A DNA stretch of 62,968 nt, filler included, from Jimgerdemannia flammicorona (taxonomy: Eukaryota), in the NCBI GenBank assembly GCA_003990765.1. It is 2 parts of 2 records of this genome, joined end to end, with 100 filler letters (N's around TTAATTAATTAA, not from the genome) between each part and the next. Parts side by side here need not be neighbours in the genome. Positions count along the whole stretch, not along the records: positions 31,539 to 62,968 come from RBNJ01000399.1; 1 more part is not named here. The stretch is one strand, 5' to 3'. The notes below the pieces were generated by a model. It worked only from the letters and a program-made list of their open reading frames with translations. It was not told the DNA's origin and ran no database searches. The position numbers were made by a program, and so were the translations under genes. Of this stretch, positions 3,652 through 55,293 are shown in pieces. Positions within the stretch are counted from its first letter, which is position 1, and every line of letters starts with the position of its first letter.

Positions 3652-5207
3652 TGTAATGGTGACCTCAGAATGATGACATCAGTACAGGAGACAGTCTTTC
3701 CTTATAAGCTATCAGATTGGATTACAAGAAGATTATACAGCATGACTTACCCAGGCTATGAGATGAGTAATGATGACCAACTGTAAGTCATTGTGACCAC
3801 AGGACAGGTATTTTGAAAAATATAAAAGAAGAATCAAGGAACCACAGTAGTAGCAACTCAATAAGACACACTAATCCCAAAATAGCTCAAAGACTTACCA
3901 TAAACAAAATGTCTGCTGCTCACCAAATCTCAAGATCAAGGTACCACCAAGGCTACTTAGTTGAAGAAAGGATGTTCTAAGATATCAGAAGAGCTATGAG
4001 GACCCATTTAAAAAGGACTCCTAGCCTCAACCTGGGTACTGAGGATCCTTATTACTTTATTCTCTACTACTATAAAATGGAAACAAGGATCACTATTGCT
4101 ACTGAATATCTCCAAATATTACAGAAGTATGAAATAGGAAACCTTCTATACCAGGAGTTCCCACAGACCAGCCCTCAAGAGTTAAAAGATACTACTTTTA
4201 TAAATATATATGAAACAAGGACAGTTAAGAAGATTTATCAGATCTTTAGGCATATATTATAGTTGATCCCCAACTTAGAGTATACTAGAGTTACAGACTT
4301 CAGAGATCTGTCAGCCTGCTATATTAATGTACTAGAAGTCAGAGTGGCAACAGAAGCTCAGTCCACTATCACCCTTGATAGTGATGAGGTATAAGAGTTC
4401 TGGTATTCCATCCTTCAGGACAACTCAGATCAATTTCTGCAAGGATTGATCTCTATATTCCAAGGCCCCAGTATCCAGGTCAGACCTCCCTAAGACCCCA
4501 CATTTATTCTCTATTTTGTAGAAGAGAACCTTATAGATTAGAGAGCCCCTGATTTCCTCACTACCAAATGTGATGATGTCATTGGCAATAATATCATTCT
4601 GCATGACATGTACAAAGTATAATATATGTGAAATGTACAATATAACTGATTTCATCTCCTTTAAAAACATCCTGACCTCTGATGAAGATAAAGCCCCCAC
4701 AGTCCTGAACATTCTGCTTTAAGTCCCTTAGTTATACAGAATTATGCTGGCATTCTTTTCCTATATAACAGCTATTTCTCTACTGGTATTCTGACCTTAT
4801 GTAACTCAGAATTATTCCAGCACTCTTTTTCTATATCACTAAAATTATACCAGCATTCTGAATCTATACAACCATCTGTGCCAATACTGGAACTTGGCAG
4901 TTTTCTGTATTCCAGCATTTTATTTAGTTATTGAAATTTATATTTAGCTTTATATCTTAGCAACTATTGAATTATATTTTGTATAAATATCCTTCTTATT
5001 TTCTTTGAAATAAAGTTAGTTCCAGTTCACTTACTCTCAATTCTATACAAGCAATCTAAGAAATAACAAGATAGTTAAAGATAAGAAGTTTGAGGACTAT
5101 AAGATCTTAGAAAGATACTCCAATAAGAACTTGCTTATAACAAACTTGAGTTAGTCTAAGAGATATACCTTGAAGAGAATCTGACATATTTGAAGGACTC
5201 AGTAACA
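3652..5207 (+). repeat. 5' LTR of B1
   Basis: TG...CA; matches 10908-10985 plus 16825-18291 and the LTRs of B2; TATA-like TATAAAT at 4982 and AATAAA at 5009. Confidence 0.93.
3909..4740 (+). pseudogene. LTR (U3)-encoded ORF, ~280 aa, unknown function, copy 1
   Basis: ATG at 3909; colinear with the same frame in the other three LTRs (…QKYEIGNLL…RTVKKIYQIFRH…). The 3' end is approximate. Confidence 0.75.
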
Positions 5208-5239
5208 ACTTGGTGTCCATTGACTGGTGATTCAAGACA

Positions 5240-10907: not shown

Positions 10908-10985
10908 TGTAATGGTGACCTCAGAATGATGACATCAGCACAGGAGACAGCCTTTCCTTATAAGCCACCAGATTGAAGGACAAGA
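10908..10985 (+). repeat. 3' LTR of B1, first part (interrupted by LINE-1)
   Basis: Same start as 3652; continues after 16824. Confidence 0.92.
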
Positions 10986-13900
10986 TTTTTTTTTTTTTTT
11001 TTTATAGTCACTTGGACTCCTTTATTCCACTAGTCTATAGAATTACACTATCCATGTATCTCATCAATTACCCTAGAATAACAATGAACCCATCCCTCCA
11101 CTATTAAATAATAATACAAGGAAGGGCCCTTCAGCCTACACCTTCTTTCCACCTCACCCCCTTCTCACCAAGTACAAGGTGCTCCTGACTCCTCTGGACA
11201 ATGTCTAACACCTTCCTCATGGCCCCCAACTGGTGCCTCCTCCCCTGATACCACCACCCTTATACTACTTCCAAGAGTAACCTCTTCCACTGCTCCACCA
11301 ATTCTCCAATTCCCATCCAAGGATCTCTCTCAAACACCCATCGCCAGTGCACTGCCATCAGTACCCAGATGCCGATAATCTGACCCAGGCCTCCCCAGAT
11401 GTCCCCAATTACTCCCACCAGTCAACGCTTGATCACCCAACAAGTGGGGCCCTCTGTCTGCTCACTCTCTACTCCCCAATAACCTTTTAATGTCTACCAA
11501 AATCCTTCAACCCCTGGACAATCTGCCAGAACATGCTCTGGTGTCTGCACTACTCCCCCATCTAGCTCACAACACCACTCATATTCCTTTACACCTTCAT
11601 CCACCATCCACCCCATCCTGTACCCCAGCATGACATTCCTCTGCAAAAATTGCCGCCATACCACCCAGAACTTAGGTGGGGCAATCTTGAGTAGAGAGGT
11701 CCCCCAACCCCAAACCCAGCCCCACTCCCACTCTTCTCTAAACCCAGCCTTCTGCCAACCAACTGGCCACCTCTCAAGCAGTTCTGTCTGGATCCACTCC
11801 ATCACCCCAGTTAAAGAGTATTCTACCAATGGGTGGCCACTAATACGAATCACACCAAATTGTCACCATCACTGTTCTGGGTCCTTCTCTTCTCTGCCAG
11901 GCTCTGGGCCCATAAGCCCCATCACTAATCAAGCTTCTACAATACCCCACCAGAATCCCTGATAGCACAACCTGCCAACCTTTCCAACCTGGAGCAAACC
12001 TTGCATATCCTTCTGAATCTCACTCCAGGGACAGAACCTAACTTCCCAATTGTCCATAGCCAGTTTGCTCCAACCCTCTCCTCCTAATTCTGCCATTTGA
12101 CAACCCCACCAGCCCCAAAGTACCTTCAGCCACCTTTTAAAGTCCACCAGCCCCAGACCTCTATCTGCCTTTGACATTACCATTATCTCCCAACTAATCT
12201 GTGATCTCCTTCCTTGCCATAGCCATCCTTCAACCACCTTCTTCAGTTTCTGTACCACCCACCCTGGAAAGTCCAGGTGGTACCCCAAGTACCACAGCTT
12301 CGGCAACCAATATACATTCAAGACTACAATCCTCCCAACCAAAGAGAACCCCCTCCCAGACCAGTCCACCAAGGCATTCTCCCACTTCTGTATCAATCCA
12401 CACCACCACTCTTTCAGCAGCACTATCTCATATACCGAGAACCAGATACCCAAATATCGAACTGCCTCCCCAGAACCAACTAAATGTCCAAAATGTCCAT
12501 GCTCCCCCAAGCCTGCTCCAAGCTCCATAGTCTCACACTTGCCCCAGTTCAGTTTCACCCCTGCCAGCATCTCATACTGTCCTACCCCTTCCTGCAAGCT
12601 TGCCACATCTTCCACACTGCCTAACCCTACCACTATGTCATCCGCAAAGGCCCCCAGCTTCCAGACCACCTCTCCCATCTTCAACCTAGTAAGCCTCCTC
12701 TTCAGCCATGCCAACAAGGGCTCCAAAGATAAAATATAAAACAGGGGTGAGAGAGGATCCCCCTGTGGCACACCTCACCCTAAGAAAAACTCTGGGCCAC
12801 TCCACCCATTCATCAACAGTGCAGCCTGGTAACCTCGCACCAGACCCATCAGTTTTTGAGCCTCCTCCATGCCAAACCCAGCCTTCCATAGAACTGCCTC
12901 CAAGTAGTTCCACCTCACCCTGTCATAAGCCTTTTCCTGGTCCAAGAACACCATTCTTCCATCTATTTGCCGGCTTCTACAACCCTCTAAAACATTTTGC
13001 ACCCAGGCTGTGCTGTCACAAATCTATCTCCCCTTCACAAACCCTCGCTGTTCCTCACCAACCAATCTGCCAATTCATTATTGCATTCTCCCTGCCAGAA
13101 TCTTGGAGACCAACTTCCTATCCACATTCAGTAACATGATGGGCCTCCAGTTCCATCACACATATCTGTCCCCTTTCTCCTTCTAGAGCAGAGAGACTAG
13201 TCCCAAGGAGCCATTGCCAATCCAGCAGCCTTCCCCCAGCATAAAGTTCGCCATTTCCATGAGCCATGCCCCAAACTCAGTTTGAAACTCCTTCCAGAAC
13301 TCCCAGGGCAATCCATCCTCTCCTGGTGACAAGCCCACCTGCACTTTCCTCAGAACCTCCAACACCTCTTCAAGGGTCACCCTACCCATTACCACCCCAC
13401 CAATTGCAGGCTCTGCCACCACTGGCCAGCTGCCAACCAAATTGTTATTATTCTCCAGCACTGTCTCTCCCTTCACCAGACCTCCATTATCCTGCCATAG
13501 GGAGCACCATCAACCAGAGATCTCCCCAAGCATATCTGTGATATCCATCACCTCTATTCCATTCTCTCGCAGCACCGAAGCCCAGCTGTGCCACACTCTC
13601 CTGGCCTTCAAGATTCTGGATAAGTATTTGGTGGGTTGCTCTCTTTCTTCCAACTGCTTTGCTCACAATCTTGCCAGCAATCCATCCACCACCCTATCTT
13701 CTGCTGCCTTCAAATCTGACAGCAATTCTGCTACCTCCTTGATCAATAGGGAGTGTTGTTCCCCTGAGGAGTTCTCTCCTTTCAAAAGTTTTAGCTGCCA
13801 GCAAAGCCCCTGCTCCACTCTCCTTTCTCTATCCTTCTGCTCCCTTCCAGCTACCTCTCCTACATCATGCCAATATACACTAGCTAGATGTTTAAATTTC

Positions 13901-16813
13901 CCCCACCACTGTGCTATCGACTGGTCACTGTTCTTCCACCATGCTACTTTCTGTCTTGTGATTTTAACAAACTTGTCCTGCTCCACCTGTCTCTTGAGTA
14001 GTGCCACATTAAGTTGCCATCTGCCTCCACCACCACTGGCTACCTGGAATCTCCCACACACCTCCACACCCCAGTGATCTGACCAGGGACACCACCATAC
14101 TTCTGACGAATCCAAAATATTACCCCAGCATTCTGCTACCAGGATCCAGTCAATCCTCATCCTAACCAAATTCTCACCAATCAGATGCCACCTAGTAAAT
14201 GGCCCTGACTTCTCACCTCGACATTGTCATACTCCATCAACCAATCTCATTTCCTTCTCAGCTTGAAGCCATCATGAGAGCCCAGTAGAAACCACCACAC
14301 CGACTCCACCATCCAACCTATCTAATGTCCTATCATGCACCATGTTGAAGTCCCCTCTCAGAATATCCAGCCCAATCTCATCTTGGCCTCCCCAATCCAG
14401 CCAACCTTCCACCCATTGGTTTCACTCCCTGCCAACTGCTGGCAGATATACAGAGCCAACCACCAATCCATCGCCAGCTCCTCCTTTCTATCTCCCCCAG
14501 ACCAATCGATCACCATATATCTCAACCTCCTTCAGCTCTCCTCTCCCCAAGCCAACCAAGATGCCCACCTGCTCATTCCACCCTGTACTACCATATCATT
14601 CCTTGCTCCACTCCTCATAATCTAGCTCCCCATAGGCCCGAATGTCCTGCAGAAATACTACATCATACCTTCTGTTCTTCAACCACTGAAACAAATACCT
14701 TCACTTCACTCTATCATACAAACCATTGATATTTAGTGATAATATACATAGACTGTTCATCATCATGGATATAAATGTTTAAAGCTCAGCTGGAATTGCC
14801 ACTACCTTTTCAGCCCTACTGCAGATTATTGCCTTCTATTCCTCGCAGATAGCCCTCCAGATGTGGGCTCTATTCACACCACTACAGAAGGCATCCACTC
14901 ACTCCAATGCCACCCTCCTGATATCAGCCATATGGTCCTCATCTACCTCATATCCTTCATCATTCAGAAGCACTGCCACCATCACTATCACCAACTTCGG
15001 CCCCTACAATGCCACATTGAGGAACCCTTCCCAGGCCTCCTGCGATCTATTAAATATATCCACTTCCTTGATATCCTCCTCCATAAGCTCCTCGAGCACT
15101 GCCTGATACCAGTCATCTGCCATCATCACCATGGGCCCATGAGTGGCTGGCCTTGGGGTTCTGTTCAGCTCCTGCAGCATCTCTCTATCCACCGACACAT
15201 CAGAAGCCACATCCACCAGGTCATCCTCCTCAGTGCCTTTCTCTAGCTGAACTACTTTGCCTGCTTCTGGGCATTTCCAATGAACATTTACTGCTCTGGC
15301 CATGTGAACATCCTCCAACTGGGTCTCTGGTACCACCTCGATAGCCTCCTCAAAGCCCGCAGCATTCACCTCCTCCTTATCAGCCCACTTCCCCTTTACT
15401 GGTGTATGAGTGGAGTTCTCCACTCTCCCTAGTTGCAAAAAGGATACCTCAGCCATCTCCACCTCTTCCATCTGATTTTTGGCCATCTCTGCTCTTTCCT
15501 TTTCCTCCTTTTCCGAGCCCTAGAGGACCATCTGTAGGCACTCCCAGTTTGTCCTTTGCCACCTCTTCCTCCTCCCATCTATCGGGATCCAGATCCAGTT
15601 CTTGGCGAACTCCTCCCATCTTCTCTTCTACAATTCCTTCACAGCCTCTCTCTCTTTAAGAGCAACTAGCAATTCCTCCTCCTTCTGTTCAGAACCCTTC
15701 CTTCTCCACACTTTGCACTCCTGCCCTCTGATACGAATCACTTCTGGCCAGTCCCTTCCTTGCCCTGTAGCCTCTTTGTCCTCCAGTCTCACCATCACCT
15801 TGCAATTGCCATTCCTCAGCTTGGTCCCCTCCCAGAACATGAATCTGAAGTCAACCATCTCACCAAATGCCCCCAGTCCTCTGCCACCATTCCTTTGGTC
15901 TCCTATCTCCCCAATGTTGGCAGCCCTTCAATCACCAGTTGCACTGCCTACAGGTCCCACCTCAGGCACCTCACCATGCCAACCTTGATGCTCTTGATGA
16001 CCAGCCCTTTCTCCAGGGCCTTCACCATCTCCTCCTCCTCAACAAATCCTATCTCAACCACCTCCACCAATGGGATGAACTTCAGTGACTCTGCCCCTGC
16101 AATCTCCTCCCCCACTAGCTGCAAGACCTCTCTAGCAGACATCCTCAGCCCCAAAAAATTCACTGAAATGGCCCACGTCAACACCGACTTGTGGAAGAAG
16201 GGACGCACCACCAGTTCACCAGAACCTGCTGCCATCATTGCCTTCTTCTTGCTCTCTGACACTCCAGCAGTCACTCCAGCCACCAGCCCAGCCCCAGGAA
16301 TATCAGTTCCAGCCACACCACTTCCGGACCCCTGGCCCCTGGCAGGCACCTGACCAGTCACCTGACCAGTCACCTGGCTGGTCACCTGACTCCTACCCCT
16401 GTCAACACTATGTCCCCTCTGCCCTACCCCCATGGGCCTAGTAGCCACCCTCCTGCCCCCCATCACCATGTACCAACTCTCAATACCAGCCTGCCTCTCC
16501 TGACCATCTGCTCCTCTTGCCCCTACACCAGCCCCTACACCTATACCAGCCCCAACCATCACCACAAAACTCTTAGGGAGACCCAGACCAGGCCTCCTTC
16601 TCTCCAAATGCTCAGAGCTTGATGAACCCTGGGGTTGCTATCTGATGAAAACTCCACCAAAACAGATGAGACTTGTTGTTTACTGTAGCTAGACTCCTGC
16701 TGCACCTTGTACATCAGAATAGATGATGGGAAAACTTGAAAATGTGTTGCTTGTTGTGAAAAGATGTCTGTGTGGCTTAGCTTGCTCTGAATGGTTTGAG
16801 TAAAAGAAGTCCC
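10986..16813 (-). mobile_element. Full-length non-LTR retrotransposon, L1/Tx1-like (LINE-1 of window), inactivated
   Basis: Poly(A) tail (T run at 10986) after AATAAA; 11-bp TSD GAAG(G/A)ACAAGA (10975-10985 / 16814-16824). ORF2 from ~14763 has APE motifs LSLNING, GDFN, RIDW, SDH and RT motifs LDQEKAYDRV, PQGDPLSP, FADD; C-terminal C…TPEH…C. ORF1 ~14780-16620. Confidence 0.95.
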
Positions 16814-18291
16814 GAAGAACAAGAAGATCATATGATATAACTCACCCAGACTATGAGATTAGTAATAATGACTAACTGTGAGTCATTATGACTACAGGAC
16901 AGGCATCTTGAGGAATATAAAAGAAGAATTAAGAAACCATAGTAGTAGCAACTCAATAAGATCCACTAATCTCAAAATAGCTCAAAGATTTACTATAAAT
17001 GAAATGCCTGCTGCTTGCCAAACCTCAAGGTCAAGAAACCACCAAGACCACTCAGTCAAAGAAAGAATATTCCAAGACATCAGAAGAGCCATGAGGACCT
17101 GTATAAGAAGGACTCCTAGCTTTAACCTGGATACCAGAGATCTTTATCACTTTATCTTCTACCATTGTGAAATAGAAATAAGGATTACTATTACTACTGA
17201 ATATCTCCAAATATGGTAGGAGTATGAAATAGGAAACCTTCTATACTGAGAGTTCCCACAGTCCAGCCCTCAAGAGTTATAAGATACCACTCCTATAGAT
17301 ATATGTGAAATAAGAATAGCTAAGAAGATTCATCAGATCTTCAGGTATACACTATGGTCAATCTCCAACTTGAAGTATACTAGAGTCATAGACTTCAGAG
17401 ATCTGTCAGCCCACTATATCAATGTACTAGGCCAGGGTAGCAACAGAAGCCTAGTCCACTATCACCCTTGATAGTGATAAGGTAGAAGAGTTCTGGTATC
17501 CCATCCTCCAGGACAATCCAGATCAATTCCTACAAGGATTGATCTCTGTATTCTAAGGCCCCAGCATCCAGGTCAGACCTCTCCAAGACCCTATATTTAT
17601 TTCCAATTTTGTGGAAGAGAATCTCATAGATTGGAGAGCCCCCAATTTTCCCACTGCTGAATGTGATGATGTCATTAGCAATGACAAAATGCATGACATA
17701 TACAAAACTCACAATGAAACTGATCTCATCTCCTTTGAAGACATTCTGACCTCTGATGAAGATAAAGCCCTTATGGTCCTAAACATTCTGCTCTAAGTCC
17801 CTTAGTTATATAGAATTATGCCAGCATTCTTTTCCTATATAATAACTATTCCTCCACTGATATTTTGATCTTATGTAACTCAGAATTATTCCAGTACTCT
17901 TTTTCTATATCACTGAAATTATACCAGTATCCTGAATCTGTGTAACCATCTGTGCTGACACTGGAACTTAGCAGTTTTTTGTATTCTAGCATTTTATTTG
18001 GTTATTGGAATTTATATTTAGCTTTATATCTTAGCAACTATTGAATTATATTTTGTATAAATATTCTTCTTATTTTCTTTGAAATAAAGTCAGTTCCAGT
18101 TCACTTACCCTCAATTCCATGCAAGCAATCTAAGAGATAATAAGATAGTTAAAGATAAAAAGTTTGAGGACTATAAGACCTTGGGAAGGTACTCTATAAG
18201 AACTTGCTTATAACAAACTTGAGTTAGTCTAAGAGATACACCTTGAAGAGAATCTGACATATTTGAAGGACTCTGTAACCACTATGTGATA
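16814..18291 (+). repeat. 3' LTR of B1, second part; includes U3 ORF copy 2 (17004-~17795)
   Basis: Colinear with ~3715-5207; ends …ACCACTATGTGATA. Confidence 0.92.
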
Positions 18292-38589: not shown

Positions 38590-38850
38590 ATGATGTAGTA
38601 AGGTAGCAAAAGCAAGTTTTTTTACTTGATATATATCTTCAGACTAGAATATATATATCAAATTGAAGGCCAAATAAATGCTGAATTATATATTAGTATT
38701 CTTAGTAATGAATTACTTTAAATAATTAATCATTATAAATATAATCATATAAAGAACTATTCCAATAAGATAATGACTCTAAATATATATCTCATATATC
38801 TAAAAAGATATACAAATAGTTCAAAAATAACTCAATCCATATGTTAGACA
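38590..38850 (+). pseudogene. Tc1 transposase DDE fragment (second copy at ~40260-40490)
   Basis: QIEGQINAELYISILSNELL…Q*DNDSKYIS…FKNNSIHMLD, a decayed FQQDNDPKHTS motif. Confidence 0.75.
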
Positions 38851-40054: not shown

Positions 40055-40085
<31 letters not shown>

Positions 40086-40607: not shown

Positions 40608-42114
40608 TATCATGTAGTGGTCGCTGAGTCCTTCAAATATGCCAGATTCTCTTCAAGATATATCTCTTAGACTAACTCAAGTTTGTTATAAGCAAGTTCT
40701 TATTGGAGTGTCTTCCCAAGGTCTTATAGTTCTCAAACTTCTTATCTTTAACTGTCTTGTTATCTCTTAGATTGCTTGCAAGGGATTGTGTATAAGTGAA
40801 ACCGGAACTGACTTTATTTCAGAGGAAATAAGAGGAATAGTTATACAAAATATAATTTAATGGTTGCTAAGATATAAAGCTAAATATAAATTCCAATAAC
40901 TAAAACTACTAAGTTCCAGAGTTGGTACTGATGGTTGTACAGGTTCAGGATGCTGGCATTATTTAGTATCATATCAAAATGCCAGTGCTGGAACAATTTC
41001 GCATTATCTCAGAATACCAGTGCGGGCATTATCTAGTATAATAAAGAACTTGGAGCAGAAAGTTCAGGACCATGGGGGCTTCATCATCATCATTACTGAA
41101 GGAGATGAGATCTGTGAATTCATCATGTAGGTCACACATTTTGCATATGTCATGTGCTTCGGGTATGTCACACAGGATGATGTCATTGCTGATGATGTCA
41201 TCATGTTCGGTGGGAAAATTGGGAACAAGATCTGGAGCTCTCCAGTTTATGAGGTTCTCTTCCACAAAATAAGGGACAAATGTAGGGTCTTGGAGAGATC
41301 TAACCTAGATGCTTGGGCCTTGGAATACTGAGATCAATCCTTGCAGGAATTGGTCTGAGTTGTCCTGAAGGATAGAATGCCAGAAGTCTTCTACTTCTTC
41401 ACTATTGAGGGTGATAGTGGACTGGGCTTCTATAGCCACTCTGGCTTCTAGTGTATTGATATGGTAGGATGACAGGTCTCTGAAGTCTGAGACTCTAACA
41501 TACTCCAAGTTGGAGATCGACTATGGTGCATGTCTGAAGATCTGATGGATCTTCCTAGTTGTCCTTATTTCGCATATATCCATGGGAGTGGCATCTTGTA
41601 GCTCTTGGGTGCTGGCCTGTGGAAACTTCCAGCAGAGGAGGTTTCCTATTTTGTACTCCTGCCACATTTGAGGCATTTGGTAGCAATGGTGATTCTTGTT
41701 TCTATTTCACAGTAGTAGAGAATAAAGTGATAAGGGTCTGCAGTACCCAGGTTGACACTAGGAGTCCTTCTTGAGCAGGTCCCCATGGCTCTTCTGATGT
41801 CTTGGAATATTCTTTCCTCAACTGAGATACCTTGGTGATTCCTTGATCTTGAGGTTTGGCAGGCAGCAGGCATTTTGTTTGTAGTAAGTCTTTGAGCTAT
41901 TTTGAGATTGGTAGTTCTTGTTAGTTGCTGCTACTGTGGTTCCTTGATCCTTCTTTTATATTCTTCAGGATGCTTGTGCTGTAGTCACAATGACTCACAG
42001 TTGGTCATCATTGCTCATCTCATATGTCATAAGATCTTCTTGTGCTTCAATCTGGTGGCTTGCAGGAAAGACTGTCTCCTATACTGATGTCATCATTCTG
42101 AGGTCACCATTACA
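40608..42114 (-). repeat. 3' LTR of B2; includes U3 ORF copy 3 (41873-41029)
   Basis: Direct repeat of 47818-49361. Confidence 0.94.
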
Positions 42115-42430
42115 TCTTCCTCCTGAATAAGAATCTTCTTGAGTATCCTTATTTATTGGTCCAGTCCTGAAAAATTTGCTGATTCCATAACCTCTGGCAA
42201 GGGGTCGAAAAGTGGTGTTTATGGGCTGATGTCTTCTCTTTGTATTTTGGTGTAATGGTGAAGAGTCACTCCCTTCATATAGAGCAAGGACCTGATTCTG
42301 ATCTTGACCAATCAGTTGATGGTTCAAACTCCTCTAACTTCGAAAGTCTCACAGATGAGTAGTTGCCAGTGTCATATCTCTTAGAGAATGGTCTAGACAG
42401 ATAGCCTGCTGGTCATGGGACATGCTGTTA

Positions 42431-43678
42431 TGATTTGCAGACTAGAACCTTGTAGGCAGTTATCATGTTTTGCTTCTCTTATATAGGTTTGTGATACTTC
42501 TTGAGTCTGTTCCTATATACCATAGTAGGCAGTATAGTCCCTGAGATTTTTCTAAGCCAGAAGATAGTTCCCTTGATATCTTGTATGTAGAAGGGTCCTT
42601 CCCATTTGGGCTCCAGTTTTCATGACCATGAGGCTTCTACTATATTTCAATATAGTAGAACCTTTTCTCTGATTCAGATGGGTTCTAGGGCCTTGTGATT
42701 CTTTTCTGCATTCTTCCTTATCAGTGCTTGTAACTTAGTGATATAATCTTCAGCCTTCTACCTGATTTGGTGTAGTCTCTAGATTTCTGCATCAAGCTAT
42801 CTCTAAGTTAGGTCTAGATTTGTGGCTGAGGTTCCATCAGAATCTTCTTCTCCAAAGAGCAGCTCTCTTGGGGTAAAATGTGTACTCTGCAACTATATGT
42901 CTTATAGGACAGAGAGGGCAGTTGGGAGGTAGTTATCCCAATTCCCATATGTCTCTGAGATCTTCATTAGGATGTTCTTGAGGATCTTATTGGTTCTCTC
43001 TGTCTGTCCATTTCCTTGAGGGTGGTACATGGTGGTCTTGATGTGCTGGATCTTGTATTTCTGATATATTATCTCATGGAATCCATTAACAAATTCTGTT
43101 CCATGGTCTGTTGTGATTTGCTTTGGTGTCTTGTAGTGGCAGATGATTTCTCAGTATAGGAAGTCAGCTATAGAGAGGGCATTGGCTTCTTGTAATGCTC
43201 CTGCCTCTATCCATTTGGTGAAGAGGTCTACAATAACTATAATATAGCAGTTTTCTGATAGTGTTACTGGTAGTGATCTAATGATATCCATTGTGATATG
43301 GTGGAAGGGGATAGGCTCAATTCTTGATGACCTGGGTGCCTGGTCTTACTGATCTTATTTCTGTTTTTGGCACTTGTCATACCCTTTGACAAATTGGCAC
43401 AGATCTTCTTCTATCTTGGGCCACCATATGGTTCTTCTTGTCTTGTCGTATGTGTTGGTTCCTCCTAAGTATCCTTGCTCATGTACTTCCTTTATTACTT
43501 GATACTTCTTGTGTTTGGGTATTACTAGCTTTCCTTCTTTTCTGAGTATAGTGTTGCCTAATTCAAACTGTTTCTAAGTCCAGTTGATGATGGTAATTAT
43601 CTAGGGTTCGAGATGGTTGGGCATCTTCTGCTGCCTAAGGTAGCTGATTAATCCATAGTATAGCTCCTTATTTATGTT
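42431..43678 (-). pseudogene. B2 integrase, separate frame
   Basis: NKELYYGLISYL…EVHEQG…WWPK…DKCQK…YHPQGNGQTERTN…KLEPKWEGPFY. Confidence 0.9.
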
Positions 43679-46600
43679 GAATAGTCTTGATGGGGGTGTT
43701 TTGGAGTGTCCTTGTGAGTGCATCAGTATTGGTATTGGTCTTTCCTGAGTGGTGCTTGACAGTACAGTTATACTCTTGCAGTCTGTAGATCCATCTGGCA
43801 TATATTCCTTTGGGGTTCAGAGTGTGGAATAGTCAGGCAAGAGTGGAATAGTCTGTTTGAATAGTGAAGTGTTTCCCAGCTAGATAGTAGTGGAACTTGT
43901 CTACTGCCCAGACTACTGCTAAGCATTCAAGCTTATACATATGACTTATAGTTCTGTTCTGCTCTGCAGGTACCTTGGCTTGTATAGAAGATGACATATT
44001 CATGTCCATCTTTCTTCTGAGCTAGAACTGCTCTAAGTTCTATAGCACTTACATCTGTCTGCAGGATGAATTCTAGGTTCTAGTCTGGTCTTTTAAGGAT
44101 GGGTGCTTGGGTCAACCTGGTCTTGAGTTCATTGAAGGTTTCTTGGTGCTCCTTGGTCAATTCGAATTTAGTCTCCTTCTTCAGTAGCTCGTAGATAGGT
44201 GCTACAATATTGGAGTATCCTTTGATGAATCTTCTGTAGTAGCTGGCCAGTCCAAGGAAGGTGTGAACTTCTGTAGTTGTTCTGGGTCTTGGGTAGGCTG
44301 CAACAACCTCAATATTCATGGGGTCTGTGTGGATTCCAGTCTGGTTGATGAGGTGTCCTAGGTAGGTGATTTCTTGAACTGCAAACTTGCATTTCTTGGG
44401 CTTAATATAGAGGCCATGCTCCTTGAGCCTCCTGAGGGCTAGTTGTATGTAATTGATATGTTTCTGTGCAGTGTTGCTGAAGATGATCACATCATCAACA
44501 TAGACAAAGAGCCATTTTCCAATCTCATTGCTGAAGACTCTGTTCATTATTCACTGGAAACATGCTGGGGTATTGCATATTCCAAATGGTATTCGCAGAT
44601 AGATATAGGTGGCATCAGGTGTAATGAAGGCTGATTTCTCACTGGCATCTTGAGTGAGACCAATCTGATGGAAGCCTGAGAACAGATCCAAGGTGGTGTA
44701 GTATTTGGCTTCGCTTCCAAGGGTAGTAAGGATTTCTTTAATATTCAGCAAGGGCTGCCTATCCTTCTTGGTGATGGCATTGAGCTTCCTGTAGTCAATA
44801 CAGAGTCTTGGTGCAAACTCTCCAGGCTTGCTTTCTTTCTTTGGGGCTAGAACAATGGATGAGGCCCAGAGACTGATAGTTTGCTTGATGATTCCGGCTT
44901 CTTCCATTTCCTTGAGTTCGGCTTGCAGCCACTCTCTGTAGGCAAGTGGTATGGGTCTGGTTTTCTGATAGATGGGCTTGATATCACTAGTGTCAACTTT
45001 GTGGTAGTACTTGAGTTCTTGATTGTGGATATCCCTGAAGTCTGTAGCAAGTACTCCTTCATTCTGGTGCAGGATCTTGAGAAGTTGTTCCTCCAGGGGA
45101 AAGTTTTCTCCAATGGTATATGTGTGCTTATTCTGGTTTTTGTCTTTCTTATGCTCAAGTTTGGTAATCTTGGTGATGGCATAGGCTCCTCTTCCAGTAG
45201 ATCCAAAGCCTTGTTCTTCTCTCTTGGTCTTGATGAGTTCAATGGCTTCTATGATCTTTGGCTTCTTGACTTCATGGATCAGCATCTGGCCAATCCTGTC
45301 ATGCTTCTTGACTTCGAAGGGGGTGGTGTGGTTGTGATTTCTGACTATGAGGAAGATCTCACCAGTGTAATCAGGGTCAATTACTCCTCCTTCAACTGAG
45401 ATTTTGCTTTTGACCAGACTGCTCCTGGTCTTGATAATTCTGGTATAGTTTTCTGGTAACTTGACTCCAATTCCAGTGCCAAGTAGAGTGGTGGTCTGTG
45501 GTTCAAGGGTAGCATCTTGAATACTGGCAAGGTTTATTCCTATGACTCCTTCAGTCTTGTATTCTGGGATCTTGGCTTCAGAGTAAAACTTCTTGACCTT
45601 GAGGGTGATGTCTGATTCTTGTTCCTCCTCATCATCACTGTCAGTTTGAAGCTCTGGAGGCTGGTCATCTTCTTCAGCTTTTCTTTTTGCTTCAGCAGCT
45701 TCTTGCTCATATTTCTGTTGGCAGATTTTCCTGACTTCACTGATACAGGACCAGCAGTCATTCAGGTGTTTGGAGCAGTACATTCTAGTACCATGGGGGC
45801 ATCTTCCTTGAGGGGCATAGCCATCGATGATCTTGTTGTACCACTGCTCATCTGTGAGCTTGGGTGTCTTGTTCTTGTTCTTGTTTACTGAGTGCATGAA
45901 GACCTCTATATCTTCTTCATCTCCTTCCTCTATGTCTGGTAGGACTCCTTTGTGGACATTGATAGAGACTCATACCTTTCTTCCTCTATAGTTGATCTGC
46001 ATCTTCTGGGCATTAAGGTCAATGATGGCCTTGGCCTTGTGAAGCTATTGGTTGCCAATGAGGATGTCATAGTTGGTAGTACTTATAACAATCACATCTA
46101 CTGGAATGGTAGCTCCTCCTATCTTGATGGGGACTTCTTGGATTTTGCCAAGGGGGGTAGCTCATGTACTATCTGCTGTGATATAGACCATCTTGGTGGA
46201 CTCTTCAATGTCTCAACCTAGGCAGTCAATTGCCTTCTTACTCATGAGGCATCCTCTAGCACCAGTATCAATGATAGCATCAAAGTTACAATCTTCAATC
46301 TGACATAGGGTATAGGCTGATGTCTTGTACTGGTCTTTGGATTCTTCACCTGAGTTCTCAGATTCTTCCTATGCATTGTGAGCTTCTACAATCTTGTACT
46401 CTTGATTCTTAGTGGTAGTTGCAAGTCCTACTCTCAACTGCTGTCTGAAGGCAGGGACTTCAGCTAGCTGTCCAAAAGTGACATTGATCTTCTGTTCCTT
46501 GAGGTTCTTATAGATGTCATACTGGTGGATCTTGGTCTTGCACAGCTTCTGTTCCTTCTTGCTTTCACTTTTTTCTGAGACTGGAGTAGTGCCTTCAATA

Positions 46601-47790
46601 ATTTGGCAGGCAGCTTTGTCTAACTCCATGTCTTGATCAATCTCCTCAGGTTGGGTCTTGCTTTGAATAGTGACAGCTGGGGTCTTCTTTGGTCTTCCAA
46701 CTGGCTTACTGTTGCTCTTCTTGTCATAGGGCTTGGACCAGGTTCTGGTACTTTCAGTAGTAGGGTAGAATTTGAGCTCCTTATAGTATTCTTTATCATC
46801 AGTGTCACTGATCTCCTCAATGACTACTGCATTGATTTGTTCTCTGGTTCTACTAGCATTGCTTGGTTGGGCTTTGCATCTTGTTTTGGTCATGCAACTT
46901 TTTGTATAGTGGCCTTCTTCTCCACATCTGAAGCAGGTGATATTGCATTCTTCTATAGCAGCTGCAAATCTCTGCACTAGTCTCCTGTTGGTACTTCAGA
47001 CTTCTCTAACAACATTACCAAGATATGCAGTCATCTCAGCAAACTACTTGGCAAGTTCTTCCACTGGGTTAGCTTTGGCTGTCTTAGGGGTAGGTGGGGT
47101 TGGTTGTCTGTTTACAACTGTGGCAGATAAGATACTAGTTGGCTTTGATGGCTCTATCTTGATGCCAGTTATTTTCTCTATTGAGTGTTCGGCAGAGTGT
47201 CTGGTAGTCTAATATCTTTGTACAAAGACCACTTTCTGATCAAGGGTCAGTACAGCTGGGGTAGACCAGATTGCTAGGGTAATTTCAGGGTGAACTCCTT
47301 TGAGGAAGGTTGAATCCACTATTTGTTTCTTGAGGCAGTCATCATAGCCAGCCAAGACAATCTGGTGGCAAATTCAGGTATAGAATGAGTTGGGATCTTC
47401 ACTAAGTCCCTGGCAGATAGTATTGAGTTGATCCTTAAGAGCTTGCTTAATCTCTTCGATATAATATGTTGTTCTAAGGAAGACCTTCATGTTGGCAAGT
47501 TTGGCTGTACCAGCATCAGCAATGATGGCTGCATTGAACTTGTCTCTGGTAGGTCCTCTAAGGCTGACTGGTAGAAGGGCCAATTGAGCATCTACACCAA
47601 GGGCTCATATGGTAGTGAATTGTTCAAAGTCTTCAATGAAGATTAGAATTGACTCTTCAGTAGTATATCTATAGAATGTGGGGGGACACATTTCCATCTT
47701 ATCTTGAATTCTTGCAGAGGTGACTCTTGTAGTCAGGGTAGTTGTTGTGAGGGTTGTTCATTTTTTAGCTTGAAAGTGAGGGATTCATCT
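43668..47790 (-). pseudogene. B2 gag-PR-dUTPase-RT-RNase H polyprotein, interrupted by stops
   Basis: ORF-track pieces 47374, 46369, 44551 and 44080 share one frame (gag through RT); CFRCGEEGHYTKSC, IIDTGA, dUTPase (~45190-45610, REEQGFGSTG), RLCIDYRKLN, VYVDD. Confidence 0.94.
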
Positions 47791-47817
47791 TGAATCACCA
47801 GCCAATGGGCACCAAGT

Positions 47818-49361
47818 TGTCATGTAGTAGTTGCTGAGTCCTTCAAATATGTCAGATTCTCTTCAAGGTATATTTCTTAGACTAACTCAAGTTTGTTATA
47901 AGCAAGTTCTTATTGGAGTGCCTTCCCAAGGTCTTATAGTCCTCAAACTTCTTATTTTTAACTATCTTGTTATTTCTTAGATTGCTTGCAAGAGATTGTG
48001 TGTAAGTAAAACTGGAACTGACTTTATTTCAGAGAAAATAAGAGGGATATTTATACAAAATATAATTCAATAGTTGCTAAGATATAAAGCTAAATATAAA
48101 TTCCAATAACTAAAACTACTAAGTTCCAGGATTGGTACTGATGGTTGTACAGGTTCAGGATGCTGACATTATTTAGTATCACATCAAAATGTCAGTGCTG
48201 GGATAATTTCATATCACCTCAGAATATCAGTGCTAGTATTATTCAGTTTTATATGAGAATACCAGTGCTGGCATTATCTAGTGTAACAAAGAACTTAGAG
48301 CAGAAAGTTCAAGACTATGGGGGCTTCATCATCATCATTACTGAAGGAGATGAGATCCACAAATTCGTCATATAGGTCACGTATTTCATATATGTTACAT
48401 ACTTCAGATATGTCATATAGGATGATGTTATTACTGATGATATCATTACATTTGGCAGGGAAATCAGGAACAAGATCTGGAGCTCTCTAGTCTATGAGGT
48501 TCTCTTCCACAAAATAAGGGACAAATGTGGGGTCTTGGAGAGATCTAACCCAGATGCTTGGGCCTTGGAATACTGAGATCAATCCTTGTAGAAATTGGTC
48601 TGGGTTGTCCTGAAAGATAGGATGCCAGAAGTCTTCTACTTCTTCACTGTTGAGAGTGATAGTGGACTGGGCTTCTGTAGCCACCCTGGCTTCTAGTGCA
48701 TTGATATGGCAGGATGACAGGTCTCTGAAGTCTGAAACTCTAACATACTCCAAGTTGGGGATCAACCATAGTATATGTCTGAAGATCTGATGGATCTTCC
48801 TAGCTGTCCTCATTTTGCATATATCTATAGGAGTGGCATCTTATAGCTCTTGGGTGCTGGCCTGTGGGAACTCCTAGCAGAGGAGGTTTCCTATTTCATA
48901 CTCCTGCCACATTTGGAGGCATTCAGTAGTAATAGTGATTCTCGTTTCCATTTTGCGGTAGTAGAGAATAAAGTGATAAGGGTCTGCAGTACCCAGGTTG
49001 ACACTAGGAGTCCTTCTTGAGTGGGTCCCCATGGCTCTTCTGATGTCTTGGAACATCCTTTCCTCGACTGAGATATCTTAGTGATTCCTTGACCTTGAGG
49101 TTTGGCAGGCAGTAGGCATTTTGTTTATGGTAAGTCTTTGAGCTATTTTGGGATTGGTGGTTCTTGTTGATTGCTGCTACTGCAGTTCCTTGATCCTTTT
49201 TTTATATTCTTCAGGATGCTTGTGCTGTGGTCACAATGACTCACAGTTGGTCATCATTGCTCATCTCATTTGCCATAAAATCTTCTTGTGCTCTGATCTG
49301 GTGGCTTGCAAGGAAAGGCTGTCTCCTATGCTGATATCATCATTCTAGGGTCACCATTACA
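47818..49361 (-). repeat. 5' LTR of B2
   Basis: TGTAATGG…CATGACA followed by PBS. Confidence 0.94.
48274..49119 (-). pseudogene. U3 ORF copy 4: 282 codons ATG to TAA without frameshift
   Basis: Five internal TAA/TAG codons, each at a position where the sister LTR has CAA or TGG. Confidence 0.8.
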
Positions 49362-50560: not shown

Positions 50561-51104
50561 CAGTGGTGGCGGTGACTTTGGCTGACGCGGAGACGTGAAT
50601 GATCTTGGAGTAGTGGCGGTCGACGTATTCCTTGAGTTGAACATGAGACAAGAACACAAGCACTTGGCTTGTAAAATGAGGGTTGTACGCGAGTTATATA
50701 TAATATTAGACATGTGCCCCCCTGGCAATCCAATTATTCTATATACCTCTTCGGCTCCATCAAGTGGCCAAACCTACCGCACTTGAAATACCATTCTTCG
50801 GTAACCTCCTCTAGGCCCTCAATGTTTGCAGACGGGCTGCCGTAGCTGCTCCGAACTGTGGACGATGAGTTGGAGGGCGAGAGCGAGGGCTTGGCGAAGC
50901 TGATGAAGCCTCCTCAGGACTGAGCCGGTGGACGCGGGCCTTCTTTATGGATATTCTAGGTACGGCGACGCGTGCCTGGAAATTTCGATGACAAACCGTT
51001 GCATCCTTGCTCAAGGGAATCTTCAGCTGGCTTTAAAGCAACCAAAACGGTCCTCAGAAGCCACGTGGCGTGCTGGAGGGACTACGCCCCTCAGCCACGC
51101 GGCT

Positions 51105-53490
51105 GGAGAGGTATAACGGTAATGAGTGAGATTTTAGGTCTTTTAAAAAAAATAATTTAAAAAAATAAAATGTAAAGAATGTCACTCCCTCCCCGAAGGT
51201 CAGGCCCGATACGATCGAGTCCACTACGCATCAAGGAAGGGCTGCATTGTTCCTCCATTACTTACCTTTACTTACCCGTAAAGGAACGCGTAGCAACCGG
51301 CCCCTCATTAGCACAACTGCTGAGCAATCCGGTGCATCATCGCAGACTCTAGACCAAATCCATCCTGCTGACATAGACGGACAGAACAGAAAATAGTGAA
51401 AATAATACTCATCTTTTGCAAAGGAATGTTTTGAAGGGGTTTCGCCAGACACACGACTAGAAGAGAGATATATATAACCGTAACAAGTGAGTTTTTTTGC
51501 TCTTTTAAAAGAAAATATTTCAAAAAATAATATATAAAGAATGTCACTCCCTCCCCGAAGGTCAGGCCCGATACGATCGAGTCCACTACGCATCAAGGAA
51601 GGGCTGCATTGTTCCTCCATTACTTACCTTTACTTACCCGTAAAGGAACGCGTAGCAACCGGCCCCTCATTAGCACAACTGCTGAGCAATCCGATACATC
51701 ATTGCAGACTCTAGACCAAATCCGTCCTGCTGACATAGGCGGACGGAATAGAAAATAGTGAAAATAATACTCATCTTTTGCAGGGGAATGGTAGGAAAGG
51801 GTTCGTAAGCCATGCGACTGGAAGAGATATATAAAACCGTAACGAGTGAGTTTTTTTTGCTCTTTTAAAAGAAAATATTTCAAAAAATAAAATATAAAGA
51901 ATGTCACTCCCTCCCCGAAGGTCAGGCCCGATACGACCGAATCCACTACGCATCAAGGAAGGGCTGCATTGTTCCTCCATTACTTACCTTTACTTACCCG
52001 TAAAGGAACGCGTAGCAACCGGCCCCTCATTAGCACAACTGCTGAGCAATCCGATACATCATTGCAGACTCTAGATCAAATCCATCCTGCTGACATAGAC
52101 GGACGGAATAGAAAATAGTGAAAACAATACTCATCTTTTGCAGGGGAATGGTAGGAAAGGGTTCGTAAGCCATGCGACTGGAAGAGGTATATAAAACCGT
52201 AACGAGTGAGTTTTTTTTGCTCTTTTAAAAGAAAAAATTTCAAAAAATAAAATATAAAGAATGTCACTCTCTCCCCGAAGGTCAGGCCCGATACGACCGA
52301 ATCCACTACGCATCAAGGAAGGGCTGCATTGTTCCTCCATTACTTACCTTTACTTACCCGTAAAGGAACGCGTAGCAACCGGCCCCTCATTAGCACAACT
52401 GCTGAGCAATCCGGTGCATCATTGCAGACTCTAGACCAAATCCGACCTGCTGACATAGACGGACAGAACAGAAAATAGCGAAAATAATACTCATCTTTTG
52501 CAAAGGAATGATTTGAAGGGGTTTCGCCAGACACACGACTGGAAGAGAGATATATATAACGGTAACGAGTGAGTTTTTTTTGCTCTTTTAAAAGAAAATA
52601 TTTCAAAAAATAAAATATAAAGAATGTCACTCCCTCCCCGAAGGTCAGGCCCGATACGATCGAGTCCACTACGCATCAAGGAAGGGCTGCATTGTTCCTC
52701 CATTACTTACCTTTACTTACCCGTAAAGGAACGCGTAGCAACCGGCCCCTCATTAGCACAACTGCTGAGCAATCCGATACATCATCGCAGACTCTAGACC
52801 AAATCCGTCCTGCTGACATAGACGGACGGAACAGAAAATAGTGAAAATAATACTCATCTTTTGCAGGGGAATGGTAGGAAAGGGTCCGTAAGCCATGCGA
52901 CTGGAAGAGATATATAAAACCGTAACGAGTGAGTTTTTTTTGCTCTTTTAAAAGAAAATATTTCAAAAAATAATATATAAAGAATGTCACTCCCTCCCCG
53001 AAGGTCAGGCCCGATACGATCGAGTCCACTACGCATCAAGGAAGGGCTGCATTGTTCCTCCATTACTTACCCGTAAAGGAACGCGTAGCAACCGGCCCCT
53101 CATTAGCACAACTGCTGAGCAATCCGATACATCATTGCAGACTCTAGACCAAATCCATCCTGCTGACATAGACGGACGGAATAGAAAATAGTGAAAATAA
53201 TACTCATCTTTTGCAGGGGAATGGTAGGAAGGGGTTCGTAAGCCATGCGACTGAAAGAGATATATATAACCGTAACGGGTGAGTTTTTAGCTCTTTTAGG
53301 AGAAAATATTTCAAAAAATAAAATGTAAAGAATGTCACTCCCTCCCCGTAGGTCAGGCCCGATACGACGGAATCCACTACGCATCAAGGAAGGGCTGCAT
53401 TGTTCCTCCATTACTTACCCGTAAAGGAACGCGTAGCAACCGGCCCCTCATTAGCACAACTGCTGAGCAATCCGATACATCATTGCAGAC
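51105..53490. repeat. Tandem array of ~360-bp units (about 6.5 copies), high identity, CpG intact
   Basis: Anchor AAAGAATGTCACTC(C/T)CTCCCCG recurs at ~51175, 51536, 51896, 52256, 52619, 52979, 53327. Confidence 0.97.
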
Positions 53491-55020: not shown

Positions 55021-55246
55021 TGAATTTCTAGCTCACTCACGAATGCGGATCGAGAAATTCGAGTAGTGGCATCGGATTTCTTGATTGATAGAATGTCGTC
55101 CAGTTTTTCAAGCTCTATTCGGTAACAGGCTGAATACAGAAACCCAAATGATAGTGGCAAAAACGAAGCGCACTCATTAGAGAGCAAGACTATAAACCAT
55201 AAAAATACGAAAAAATAGAAATAGAAATAAAAAGCGTGTCAGTAAG

Positions 55247-55290
<44 letters not shown>

Positions 55291-55293
<3 letters not shown>

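Follow-up and report, generated by a model that had tools for sequence, protein, structure and literature searches.

Can the LTR of a retrotransposon hold a whole gene? In the literature searched, a gene lying wholly inside an LTR has its other known examples in a few retroviruses, as with MMTV sag, and not in retrotransposons, whose accessory genes are placed by that literature in the internal region. In the window (the whole stretch of DNA analysed, 62,968 nt) four LTRs belonging to two Ty3/Gypsy elements had been predicted to share one coding frame. Is this frame what is left of a real gene, or is it an accident of the sequence? If it was a gene, was it expressed from a promoter of its own, and what might its product have done? 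Our main reading is that the LTR of a dUTPase-bearing Ty3/Gypsy element holds a complete accessory gene of an orphan protein family, and that this gene is its own transcription unit, the latter with a probability of roughly 0.55.

The two Ty3/Gypsy elements of the window are E1, on the plus strand, and E2, on the minus strand, each with the domain order gag-PR-dUTPase-RT-RNaseH-IN. A Pfam search of the read-through frames found, in order, zf-CCHC, Asp_protease_2, dUTPase, RVT_1, RT_RNaseH(_2), Integrase_H2C2 and rve, and the carrier is probably a fungal Gypsy-type retrotransposon. The parts of the two elements that concern us are as follows.

3652..5210, plus strand: 5' LTR of E1, with a gene copy at 3909..~4722
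10908..18291, plus strand: 3' LTR of E1, with a gene copy at 17004..~17796
40608..42114, minus strand: 3' LTR of E2, with a gene copy at 41873..41050
42115..47817, minus strand: internal region of E2, with gag (CCHC), aspartic protease, dUTPase, RT, RNase H and integrase (H2C2 and rve)
47802..47817, minus strand: PBS-like sequence ACTTGGTGCCCATTGG, directly after the 5' LTR of E2
47818..49361, minus strand: 5' LTR of E2, 1544 nt, TGTAATGG...CATGACA
48295..49119, minus strand: the flagged gene copy, 274 codons and a natural TAA, at LTR nt 243-1067 of 1544

All four LTRs are ~1.5 kb long. Their termini are TG..CA, and both elements are bounded by 4-bp target duplications, ATAA for E1 and CTAT for E2; one copy of the latter flanks the 5' LTR and the other lies beyond 40608. 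The 3' LTR of E1 is in two pieces, 10908-10985 and 16853-18291, between which there is a nested 5.9-kb insertion. In E2 a TGG-starting sequence 3 nt past the 5' LTR is a putative PBS, and at the 3' end of the internal region a purine run, CAGGAGGAAGA, abuts the 3' LTR as the putative polypurine tract. The internal region of E2 contains stops and frameshifts. It has gag-pol domains only, and the ORF of the LTR gene does not occur there.

The target duplications, the PBS-like site and the polypurine tract set the LTR boundaries against which the ORF was placed. It lies wholly inside the LTR, at nt 243-1067 of the 1544, in the sense orientation and on the gag-pol strand, just as the original prediction had it. 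Each element therefore has two copies of the gene. The proposal that every transposition duplicates the gene is supported by this position; the further proposal, that copies are left behind in solo LTRs, is without an observed case, there being no solo LTR in the window.

The presence of one and the same frame in each of the four LTRs, with the quoted motifs, was borne out by tblastn with an intact relative, P0003, as the query. This matched 49119-48298, 41873-41053, 3909-4598 (with 4645-4719) and 17004-17793, at E-values from 5e-115 to 3e-86. The prediction had described a gene of ~281 aa with five stops, each of them CAA or TGG in the sister LTR. In the flagged copy there are in-register stops at codons 14 (TAA), 82 (TAG), 93 (TAA), 211 (TAG) and 275 (TAA), and the sister LTR does have CAA, TGG, CAA, TGG and CAA at these codons. 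The fifth, however, is the natural terminator, because codon 275 is TAA in three of the four window copies and the relatives end in ...LNFLL. The gene is therefore 274 codons long, from 49119 to 48295, and has four premature stops (codons 14, 82, 93 and 211).

Compared with its relatives the flagged copy has no indel, a point on which the earlier description stands, and the three other copies are more damaged. The copy in the 3' LTR of E2 has lost 1 nt at 41670, codons 118 and 190 are stops in it, and CAA has taken the place of the terminator. Both copies in E1 have 5 premature stops and a 2-nt deletion, to which a 9-nt deletion is added in the 5' LTR, and deletions of 9 and 21 nt in the 3' LTR. 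Over 1507 sites the differences between the sister LTRs are 138 transitions as against 3 transversions, and there is a bias for CpA>TpA. The four copies in the window are pseudogenes, made so by transition-only, RIP-like mutation.

Are there intact members of this family elsewhere? A search of 5.8 billion proteins found relatives at E-values of 5e-125 to 6e-31; among 276 candidates, 6 proteins had E<=0.01 and were 54-81% identical. The full-length relative of 271 aa starts with MPAARQTSRSRNHQ and ends in LNFLL. When 1,835,955,588 representatives were searched exhaustively with a profile, 5 came up at E<=0.001, among them forms of 342 aa and 200 aa with 27-40% identity, and a profile-seeded search gave 11 at E<=0.001, adding a form of 325 aa. 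Taken over these searches the intact relatives are 271-342 aa in length and 27-80% identical, and come from independent metagenome contigs. The family is tiny and its source is short metagenome contigs, the proteins being gene-caller predictions, several of which are fragments starting at internal Met residues. From 587 metagenome pattern matches one relative with DNA, L001, was obtained; 65 pattern matches in viral contigs gave no relatives. One of the predicted members, P0020, is encoded on a contig of 4848 nt.

L001 has a single open frame of 323 codons, while every other frame is of 84 aa or less. The differences between the window copy and L001 fall 108/69/142 by codon position over 277 codons, and the NG86 dN/dS is 0.15, with dS saturated. 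In the coding core, where nucleotide identity is 66.5%, pS is 0.71 and pN 0.23. The pN/pS is 0.32 in frame, as against 0.99 and 1.48 when the frame is shifted by 1 and by 2, in an alignment that was guided by the frame-0 protein and so favours frame 0 somewhat. Conservation extends to the start context, to the natural stop and to the LNF motif at the C-terminus. The LTR gene is a genuine, once-intact family, maintained by purifying selection in four or more diverged subfamilies. The diverged relatives keep the frame open, free of the stops and frameshifts of the window copies, and the claim that the ancestral ORF was intact holds, as does the expectation that substitutions would be specific to a frame. 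The gene is also distinct from gag and pol, as had been supposed: it has no Pfam family, and a comparison with frame 1 of the three read-through frames, the frame of gag, PR, dUTPase and RT, had as its best BLASTP E-value 1.2.

Two explanations would deny the gene a function of its own. The first is that the frame is open by chance or that its conservation is an artefact of alignment. Each of the four window copies does contain stops, yet E-values reach 5e-125 against independent contigs, and with the codon-position and frame controls this explanation is scarcely credible. The second is that the sequence is a passenger, either a captured fragment of a host gene or a coding relic, the DNA of which is kept as cis-regulatory sequence. 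This would suit a product with no recognisable domain. It would also suit the transversions within the window, the density of which is 0.027 per site in the ORF core and equal to the 0.025 of the upstream LTR segment; by codon position the window-only transversions in the core are 8/3/6, too few to show constraint. A passenger would not be expected, however, to hold pS at 0.71 and pN at 0.23 with the signal lost in shifted frames, to remain open in subfamilies that are as little as 27% identical, or to keep its start context, natural stop and LNF motif. Longer or fused host-like forms of 600-2000 aa numbered 0 among 8000 scored candidates, which is weak evidence in the same direction. We regard the passenger explanation as very improbable.

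If the gene is real, how might it be expressed? The LTR has the following signals around the ORF.

49200..49209, minus strand: TATA1, GAATATAAAA, at LTR nt 153-162 and 87 nt upstream of the ORF ATG
48161..48277, minus strand: three direct repeats with a spacing of 35 bp, 72-77% identical to the reference copy
48048..48057, minus strand: TATA2, TGTATAAATA, at LTR nt 1305-1314, conserved in L001
48023..48028, minus strand: AATAAA, at LTR nt 1334-1339, conserved in L001, a putative poly(A) signal

A TATA and an AATAAA downstream of the frame had been predicted, and the TATAAATA/AATAAA pair is indeed conserved in L001. The second conserved TATA, TATA1 upstream of the ORF, is new to this analysis. 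It is found 65-88 nt upstream of the ATG across the sequences and is invariant in the four window LTRs and L001, between which the context of the ATG is likewise invariant. In four of five sequences the leader from TATA1 to the ATG is free of other ATGs. The conservation of this layout rests on a single outgroup, because L001 is the one relative with DNA; its LTR ends lie off the contig. The direct repeats are located between the ORF stop and TATA2, and similar repeats of 33 bp are present in E1. Enhancers in the retroviral U3 occupy such a position, upstream of the promoter, and by analogy the repeats may be an enhancer-like array. TATA2 itself may be either the promoter from which the genomic RNA starts or an efficiency element for polyadenylation. 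Among the 14 runs listed there was no RNA run holding element sequence.

From these signals we favour, with the probability stated at the outset, an arrangement in which the gene would be its own transcription unit, with TATA1 as its promoter and its end at the AATAAA of the LTR, and would hence lie in U3. TATA1 would then give a monocistronic mRNA of ~1.15 kb that ends at the LTR's own AATAAA, and the genomic gag-pol RNA would start at TATA2, just before or at the AATAAA. Every round of reverse transcription would therefore place a copy of a U3 gene at both ends, and the genomic RNA would include the gene as well, at its 3' end.

An alternative reading of the same signals keeps the gene real and puts it in R. 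TATA1 would be the only LTR promoter and TGTATAAATA...AATAAA a polyadenylation signal of the fungal type, UA-rich elements upstream of AAUAAA being typical of 3'-end signals in yeast and other fungi. R would then be ~1.15 kb long, and the genomic RNA would have the ORF as its first cistron and again at its 3' end; the ORF mRNA would come from transcripts polyadenylated in the 5' LTR, and the genomic RNA from those that read through. TATA1 is as conserved as TATA2, as this requires, and TATA2, at ~25 nt before the AATAAA, would allow a very short R at best. However, an upstream cistron of 274 codons, with its many AUGs, would keep scanning ribosomes from reaching gag, and the 35-bp direct repeats are upstream of TATA2, which is the site expected of the enhancers of a second promoter. 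To our knowledge, an R of over 1 kb would be several times the length of that in any known retroelement. These counterpoints are indecisive. We hold the placement in R to be unlikely, and the placement in U3, as a separate transcription unit, is the one that we carry forward.

What would the product be? Among four members the net charge by composition of residues 1-40 is +8 in P0003, +7 in P0010, +5 in P0022 and +1 in P0020, and that of the last ~70-120 residues is -17 to -29; P0003 has 10 K/R in its first 40 residues. The core of ~170 residues is conserved and is helical in the model, and the tail is variable, acidic and studded with hydrophobic residues, with the conserved motifs DLISF and LNF(L/R)L. 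Of two AF2 models the first had a pLDDT of 34.2 and the second a pLDDT of 54.3 and a pTM of 0.45, with the N-terminus and the C-terminal tail without a confident model. Foldseek found nothing in the PDB at E<=0.001 (best 1.3), and VIA-align found none of 48,161 chains at Z>=5 (best Z 3.7). Winged-helix regulators (MarR, SarA, IclR) were considered as a fold and rejected, their Z of 2.4-3.1 being below the noise level for helical models. Matches in the ESM Atlas were at chance level: the best score was 0.83 with the whole protein and 0.91 with the core alone, the shared features numbered 147-149, and the families did not agree with one another. The window protein had no Pfam family at E<=0.1, 16 family members had chance-level Pfam matches only (best E 0.026), and PDB sequences gave no match at E<=10. 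The family is thus an orphan, with no match to a known Pfam, PDB-sequence or fold relative. Since the models are poor to middling and there are no matches, any assignment of function rests on charge layout and position only.

On that footing we tentatively suggest that the product may be a regulator in the nucleus, a transactivator of the LTR acting in trans, in which case any intact LTR could supply the protein to all copies of the family. A different possibility, which we hold to be doubtful, is a post-transcriptional or anti-defence factor. It might serve in RNA export or packaging, in the manner of CERV or Rev/Rex, or as an inhibitor of RNAi, cytosine methylation or RIP. Retroviral Rev and Rex have an arginine-rich N-terminus and a hydrophobic C-terminal motif, and here P0003 has an arginine-rich N-terminus and the tail has conserved hydrophobic motifs, DLISF and LNF(L/R)L. 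Attack by the host through transition hypermutation is clear, and the CERV of Cer1 is a precedent for a regulator in Ty3/Gypsy, to judge from the part of the source available (PMC10309623). The product has no homology or fold match among proteins of this kind, however; the element has no evident intron or need for splicing, and the window copies were not protected from mutation. Should the product be a regulator acting in trans, each LTR of the family might be an autonomous gene, with its promoter, its ORF of 274 codons and its poly(A) signal, and solo LTRs might be 'helper' loci for it, a suggestion that we consider speculative and rather improbable. Each transposition would then double the dose, and an antagonist of silencing or a transactivator of the LTR would serve the whole family. 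This would be a 'complex' regulatory circuit of the retroviral type, independently evolved in a fungal retrotransposon and using a fold without known relatives.

The nearest counterpart in position is MMTV sag, which is also a complete sense ORF wholly in the LTR and hence at both ends of the provirus. MMTV Sag is a membrane superantigen. The two differ in that MMTV is a vertebrate retrovirus and the carrier here probably a fungal Ty3/Gypsy element, with a TATA directly upstream of the ORF. By sequence they are unrelated, the window protein having no Pfam family at E<=0.1, and here there is a basic N-terminus and an acidic tail, without a counterpart of the host system. Foamy viruses have a second, internal promoter dedicated to the regulator Tas, which then activates the LTR. 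Foamy Tas/Bet and lentiviral nef resemble the present gene as accessory regulators at the 3' end or in the LTR, and the basic-plus-acidic layout is activator-like. They start in the internal region, however, and overlap U3, whereas here the whole gene and its putative promoter are in the LTR; no homology to them was found in Pfam or PDB sequences, and activation of the LTR is here putative. Among the matches listed in the literature on LTR ORFs, MMTV sag was the commonest case and the other recognised cases were also retroviral.

Accessory genes of retrotransposons are closer in host element and farther in position. Cer1, a Ty3/Gypsy element of C. elegans, encodes CERV, described in the available part of PMC10309623 as a lineage-restricted accessory protein, without homologues beyond a narrow group, by which the RNA of the element itself is regulated; the present gene lies within the LTR and is apparently unspliced. 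The plant aORFs and brtn of Botrytis Boty, a fungal Gypsy element, are conserved extra ORFs of unknown function, according to excerpts of PMC7264820, PMC4227169 and 10.1101/2021.04.13.439636. These, like CERV, belong to the internal region and not inside the LTR boundaries. The phrases 'in', 'within' or 'inside the LTR' have 0 occurrences in the review of plant aORFs. Among fungal Gypsy elements a dUTPase is reported for Tmt1 of Tuber and, between PR and RT, for PosPlaTy3-5 of Postia (PMC2864245, section 5, in the portion available). These and the Phanerochaete elements are the dUTPase-bearing likenesses of the carrier, in which, as in PosPlaTy3-5, the dUTPase is between PR and RT. The accessible text of PMC2864245 has no mention of an LTR-borne gene for any of them. 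Two items of that paper could bear on novelty: Figure 3, the legend of which has an 'add. ORF' of unknown function, and Additional file 1, with the structures of >150 fungal Gypsy families. In open full text (PMC-CC and bioRxiv) no fungal or plant LTR retrotransposon was found to have a gene embedded in its LTR. In its available part, the crapaud paper has LTR subfamilies and ORFs for gag and pol only; the 'LTR ORFs' of the Talaromyces paper are pol ORFs; the truffle genome paper names the Tmt1 clade and has no ORF terms; and the choanoflagellate and rotifer papers are not relevant to LTR-embedded genes.

If the main reading is correct, annotation would change, since LTRs are normally masked as non-coding, and solo LTRs would become potential genes. 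The masking may be why the family has been seen only as anonymous 'hypothetical proteins' of metagenomes. The gene would also provide a tractable retrotransposon-encoded regulator in fungi, where elements face the defences of RIP and methylation.

The stretch was found in part in twelve sequencing runs, soil metagenomes among them, with a best share of 0.24. Each of the four soil-metagenome runs compared has many contigs with the family, and any function would therefore matter for a common, transposon-rich soil organism. Through most of the LTR the contig depth per bin was ~2-3x higher than in the internal region, a measure that cannot rank the parts of a gene. At the premature stop of codon 93 (place 48843), which is the only one of the four premature stops among the 40 listed of 1773 differing places, the related soil-metagenome contigs mostly have CAA. 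The depth of CAA at 48843 in the four runs was 571.7/614.9, 87.1/100.8, 40.3/40.3 and 27.5/35.2.

The reading frame in the 5' LTR of E2 is an LTR-resident accessory gene of an LTR retroelement, probably a fungal Gypsy carrier, and its product belongs to an orphan protein family; we infer its placement in U3 and its function. The carrier is present in the window as two copies, E1 and E2, recognised by repeat finding and alignment. Its LTR is 1544 nt long, with the ends TGTAATGG...CATGACA, and there are 4-bp target duplications of CTAT at E2 and ATAA at E1. A PBS-like sequence, ACTTGGTGCCCATTGG, directly follows the 5' LTR, and the purine run CAGGAGGAAGA adjoins the 3' LTR. The internal region, translated by reading through with X at stops, has the Pfam domain order zf-CCHC, aspartic protease, dUTPase (E 1e-22), RVT_1 (E 3e-30), RNase H, Integrase_H2C2 and rve. 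Because of this order the carrier is assigned to the Ty3/Gypsy elements with a dUTPase between protease and reverse transcriptase. This is a minority arrangement, which section 5 of PMC2864245 reports in some fungal Gypsy elements.

Features of the carrier element and its LTR gene
49361..47818, minus strand: 5' LTR of E2 (alignment)
42114..40608, minus strand: 3' LTR of E2 (alignment)
3652-5210, plus strand: 5' LTR of E1 (alignment)
10908-10985 and 16853-18291, plus strand: 3' LTR of E1, in two pieces around a 5.9-kb nested insertion (alignment)
45193-45579, minus strand: dUTPase domain of pol, between protease and reverse transcriptase (Pfam)
49119..48295, minus strand: LTR gene, 274 codons with four premature stops (frame reading and relatives)

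The minus-strand frame from 49119 begins MPTACQTSRSRNH, followed by a stop, and continues through the motifs quoted in the original prediction. That prediction put the same frame into each of the four LTRs. A tblastn search using an intact relative agreed, matching all four LTRs and no other place in the window, and it showed no solo LTR there. The absence of indels claimed for the E2 copy was borne out relative to its relatives, and the other three copies have frameshifts plus stops. Five stops and about 281 residues had been proposed. The in-register stops are at codons 14, 82, 93, 211 and 275, where the sister LTR (the 3' LTR of E2) reads CAA, TGG, CAA, TGG and CAA, as predicted. Only the first four are premature, however. 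Codon 275 is the natural terminator: three of the four window copies have TAA at this codon, and it is where full-length relatives stop (...LNFLL). This shortens the gene to 274 codons.

The copies have been altered mainly by transitions. E2's LTR pair, which was identical when the element inserted, has since come to differ by 138 transitions and 3 transversions, or 141 of the 1507 sites aligned. With the other element used to assign polarity, C>T changes in E1 were mostly in CpA (ACA, TCA, CCA and GCA contexts, 44/70), and G>A changes often followed T. Such a bias is characteristic of repeat-induced point mutation or of a related process of cytosine deamination. Together with it, the window's blocks of 19-25% GC, the apparent short introns of a Kelch-repeat host gene and the soil-metagenome provenance of every related sequence make a filamentous fungus the probable host.

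Six relatives (E 5e-125 to 6e-31), all anonymous metagenome proteins, emerged among the 276 candidates from a search of 5.8 billion proteins. The full-length one, of 271 aa, begins and stops where the window frame does, and forms of 323 aa were added through cluster look-up. When 1.84 billion cluster representatives were searched exhaustively with a profile, just five matched, two of them far more remote (39% and 27% aligned identity); a search seeded with the profile gave 11, including a new 325-aa member. The related sequences are all from soil metagenomes. Judged from these sequences, the family has at least four subfamilies, which have in common the motifs W-x-(E/D)-Y-E-I, HQIFRH-P, LE-x-VA, F-(Q/E)-G-P, W-N-P-(I/L)-L-Q-D-N-P-D-Q-F, P-Y-F-V-E-E-N-x-I-D-W-R and a C-terminal LNF.

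The original prediction had named a gag or env fragment as the alternative identity. No such kinship appeared when the 271-aa relative was compared with read-through frame 1 of the element, one of three frames and the one covering gag, protease, dUTPase and reverse transcriptase (best BLASTP E 1.2). No Pfam family matched the window protein at E<=0.1, 16 family members gave chance-level Pfam matches only, and no PDB sequence matched at E<=10.

Is the frame under selection? The sole relative with DNA in the codon comparisons is L001, a metagenome contig of 1345 nt with a single open frame of 323 codons, all other frames being at most 84 aa. Differences between it and the window copy by codon position are 108/69/142 over 277 codons, with a dN/dS of 0.15 at saturated dS. 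Over a 212-codon core pS is 0.71 and pN 0.23, a ratio of 0.32, against 0.99 and 1.48 for the same alignment out of frame by one and two bases; the alignment is protein-guided and slightly favours frame 0, but the contrast is nonetheless large. A passenger frame whose protein has no role is unlikely because of this frame-specific constraint. In contigs from four soil-metagenome runs, premature stop 93 is CAA in most of the depth. Within the window, ORF transversions by codon position (8/3/6) are too few for a powered comparison, and their density equals that of the upstream LTR segment. The relatives and the codon comparison with L001 show that the LTR gene is real.

Layout of the 1544-nt LTR (LTR nt)
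153-162: upstream TATA-like motif, TATA1, GAATATAAAA
243: ATG of the LTR gene
1065-1067: natural stop of the LTR gene
about 1085-1201 (window 48161-48277): three direct repeats, 35-bp spacing
1305-1314: downstream TATA-like motif, TATA2, TGTATAAATA
1334-1339: AATAAA
1544: LTR end

The coding core of L001 has only 66.5% nucleotide identity to the window, yet the contig retains GAATATAAAA, the ATG surroundings (AAGACTYACYAYAAAC-AAATGCC), TGTATAAATA and AATAAA. Four of five sequences have no ATG in the leader between TATA1 and the start codon, the exception being a mutated window copy. The frame does lie upstream of the LTR TATA/AATAAA, as predicted, with both past the stop; TATA1 was absent from the prediction, which gave only this downstream pair.

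The simplest reading, to which we give a probability of roughly 55%, is a two-promoter LTR with the gene in U3. TATA1 would drive an mRNA of ~1.15 kb that finishes at the poly(A) signal within the same LTR. From TATA2, with the enhancer-like repeats ahead of it, the gag-pol genomic RNA would begin at AATAAA or shortly past it, leaving a short R; such a start would put the gene in U3. Among the 14 sequencing runs listed, none on record as RNA contains the sequence. Reverse transcription would copy the gene to both ends, making it expressible from either LTR. In the main rival reading, which is less probable, TATA2 and AATAAA are a fungal poly(A) signal only and TATA1 is the sole promoter, so that the gene would lie in an R of ~1.15 kb and head the genomic RNA as its first cistron. 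Against this reading, such an R would be unusually long, and a long upstream cistron would hamper gag translation.

What might the protein do? The N-terminal 40 residues have a net charge of +8, +7 and +5 in three members and +1 in a fourth, the conserved core is near-neutral, and the variable tail is -17 to -29, with many hydrophobic residues inside its acidic runs (DLISF, LNFLL). The part encoding the tail contains short tandem DNA repeats (48368-48449, minus strand; period 18 x 2.9 and period 15 x 1.9), and it is the part most variable in length among relatives. AlphaFold with 19 sequences gave a mostly helical core (mean pLDDT 54.3, pTM 0.45; pLDDT 55-90 over residues ~14-32 and 62-162). 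Foldseek with this model found no match (best E 1.3), VIA against 48,161 chains reached a best Z of 3.7, below what the tool regards as noise for helical models, and ESM Atlas look-alikes were at chance level. Going by layout and position alone, we tentatively favour a transactivator, a predicted nuclear regulator that works on the LTR; a role in RNA export or packaging, or in countering silencing, has roughly the same probability.

Full-text searches for ORFs lying in an LTR returned mostly retroviral cases, among which MMTV sag was the commonest. The accessory gene is LTR-resident here as in MMTV, but on a probably fungal Gypsy element; in the full texts searched, which include few subscription journals, no fungal or plant retrotransposon was described as having a gene contained entirely in its LTR.

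Other features were observed in the window. The 5.9-kb insertion nested in the E1 3' LTR (10986-16852) is extremely strand-skewed in composition (GC skew -0.32 to -0.51), with a protein-coding strand that is G-rich and W/G-rich. Its only reverse transcriptase match is weak (RVT_1, E 0.004), and a non-LTR retroelement is its probable identity. The opposite strong skew, +0.34 to +0.58, extends over ~9 kb from right after E1 (18300-27000), which may be a related element in the other orientation. A 212-nt inverted repeat has arms at 3440-3651 and 27443-27654 that are 94% complementary, one directly adjoining the 5' end of E1. Blocks of 19-25% GC at 32000-35000, 38000-41000 and 55000-57000 flank elements and genes of 40-50% GC and would fit old repeats that RIP-like transitions have heavily altered. 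A tandem array at 51101-53490 has about 7 copies of a ~360-bp period, 72-97% alike, in a block of 42-52% GC. Two 44-N runs (31439-31482 and 31495-31538), masked or unknown bases, lie within the joining filler. A host-like gene at 35734-37756 (plus strand) has Kelch/beta-propeller matches in two open stretches (E 4e-5 and 4e-11) and predicted hydrophobic segments, one N-terminal and one C-terminal, and appears to be split by short introns.
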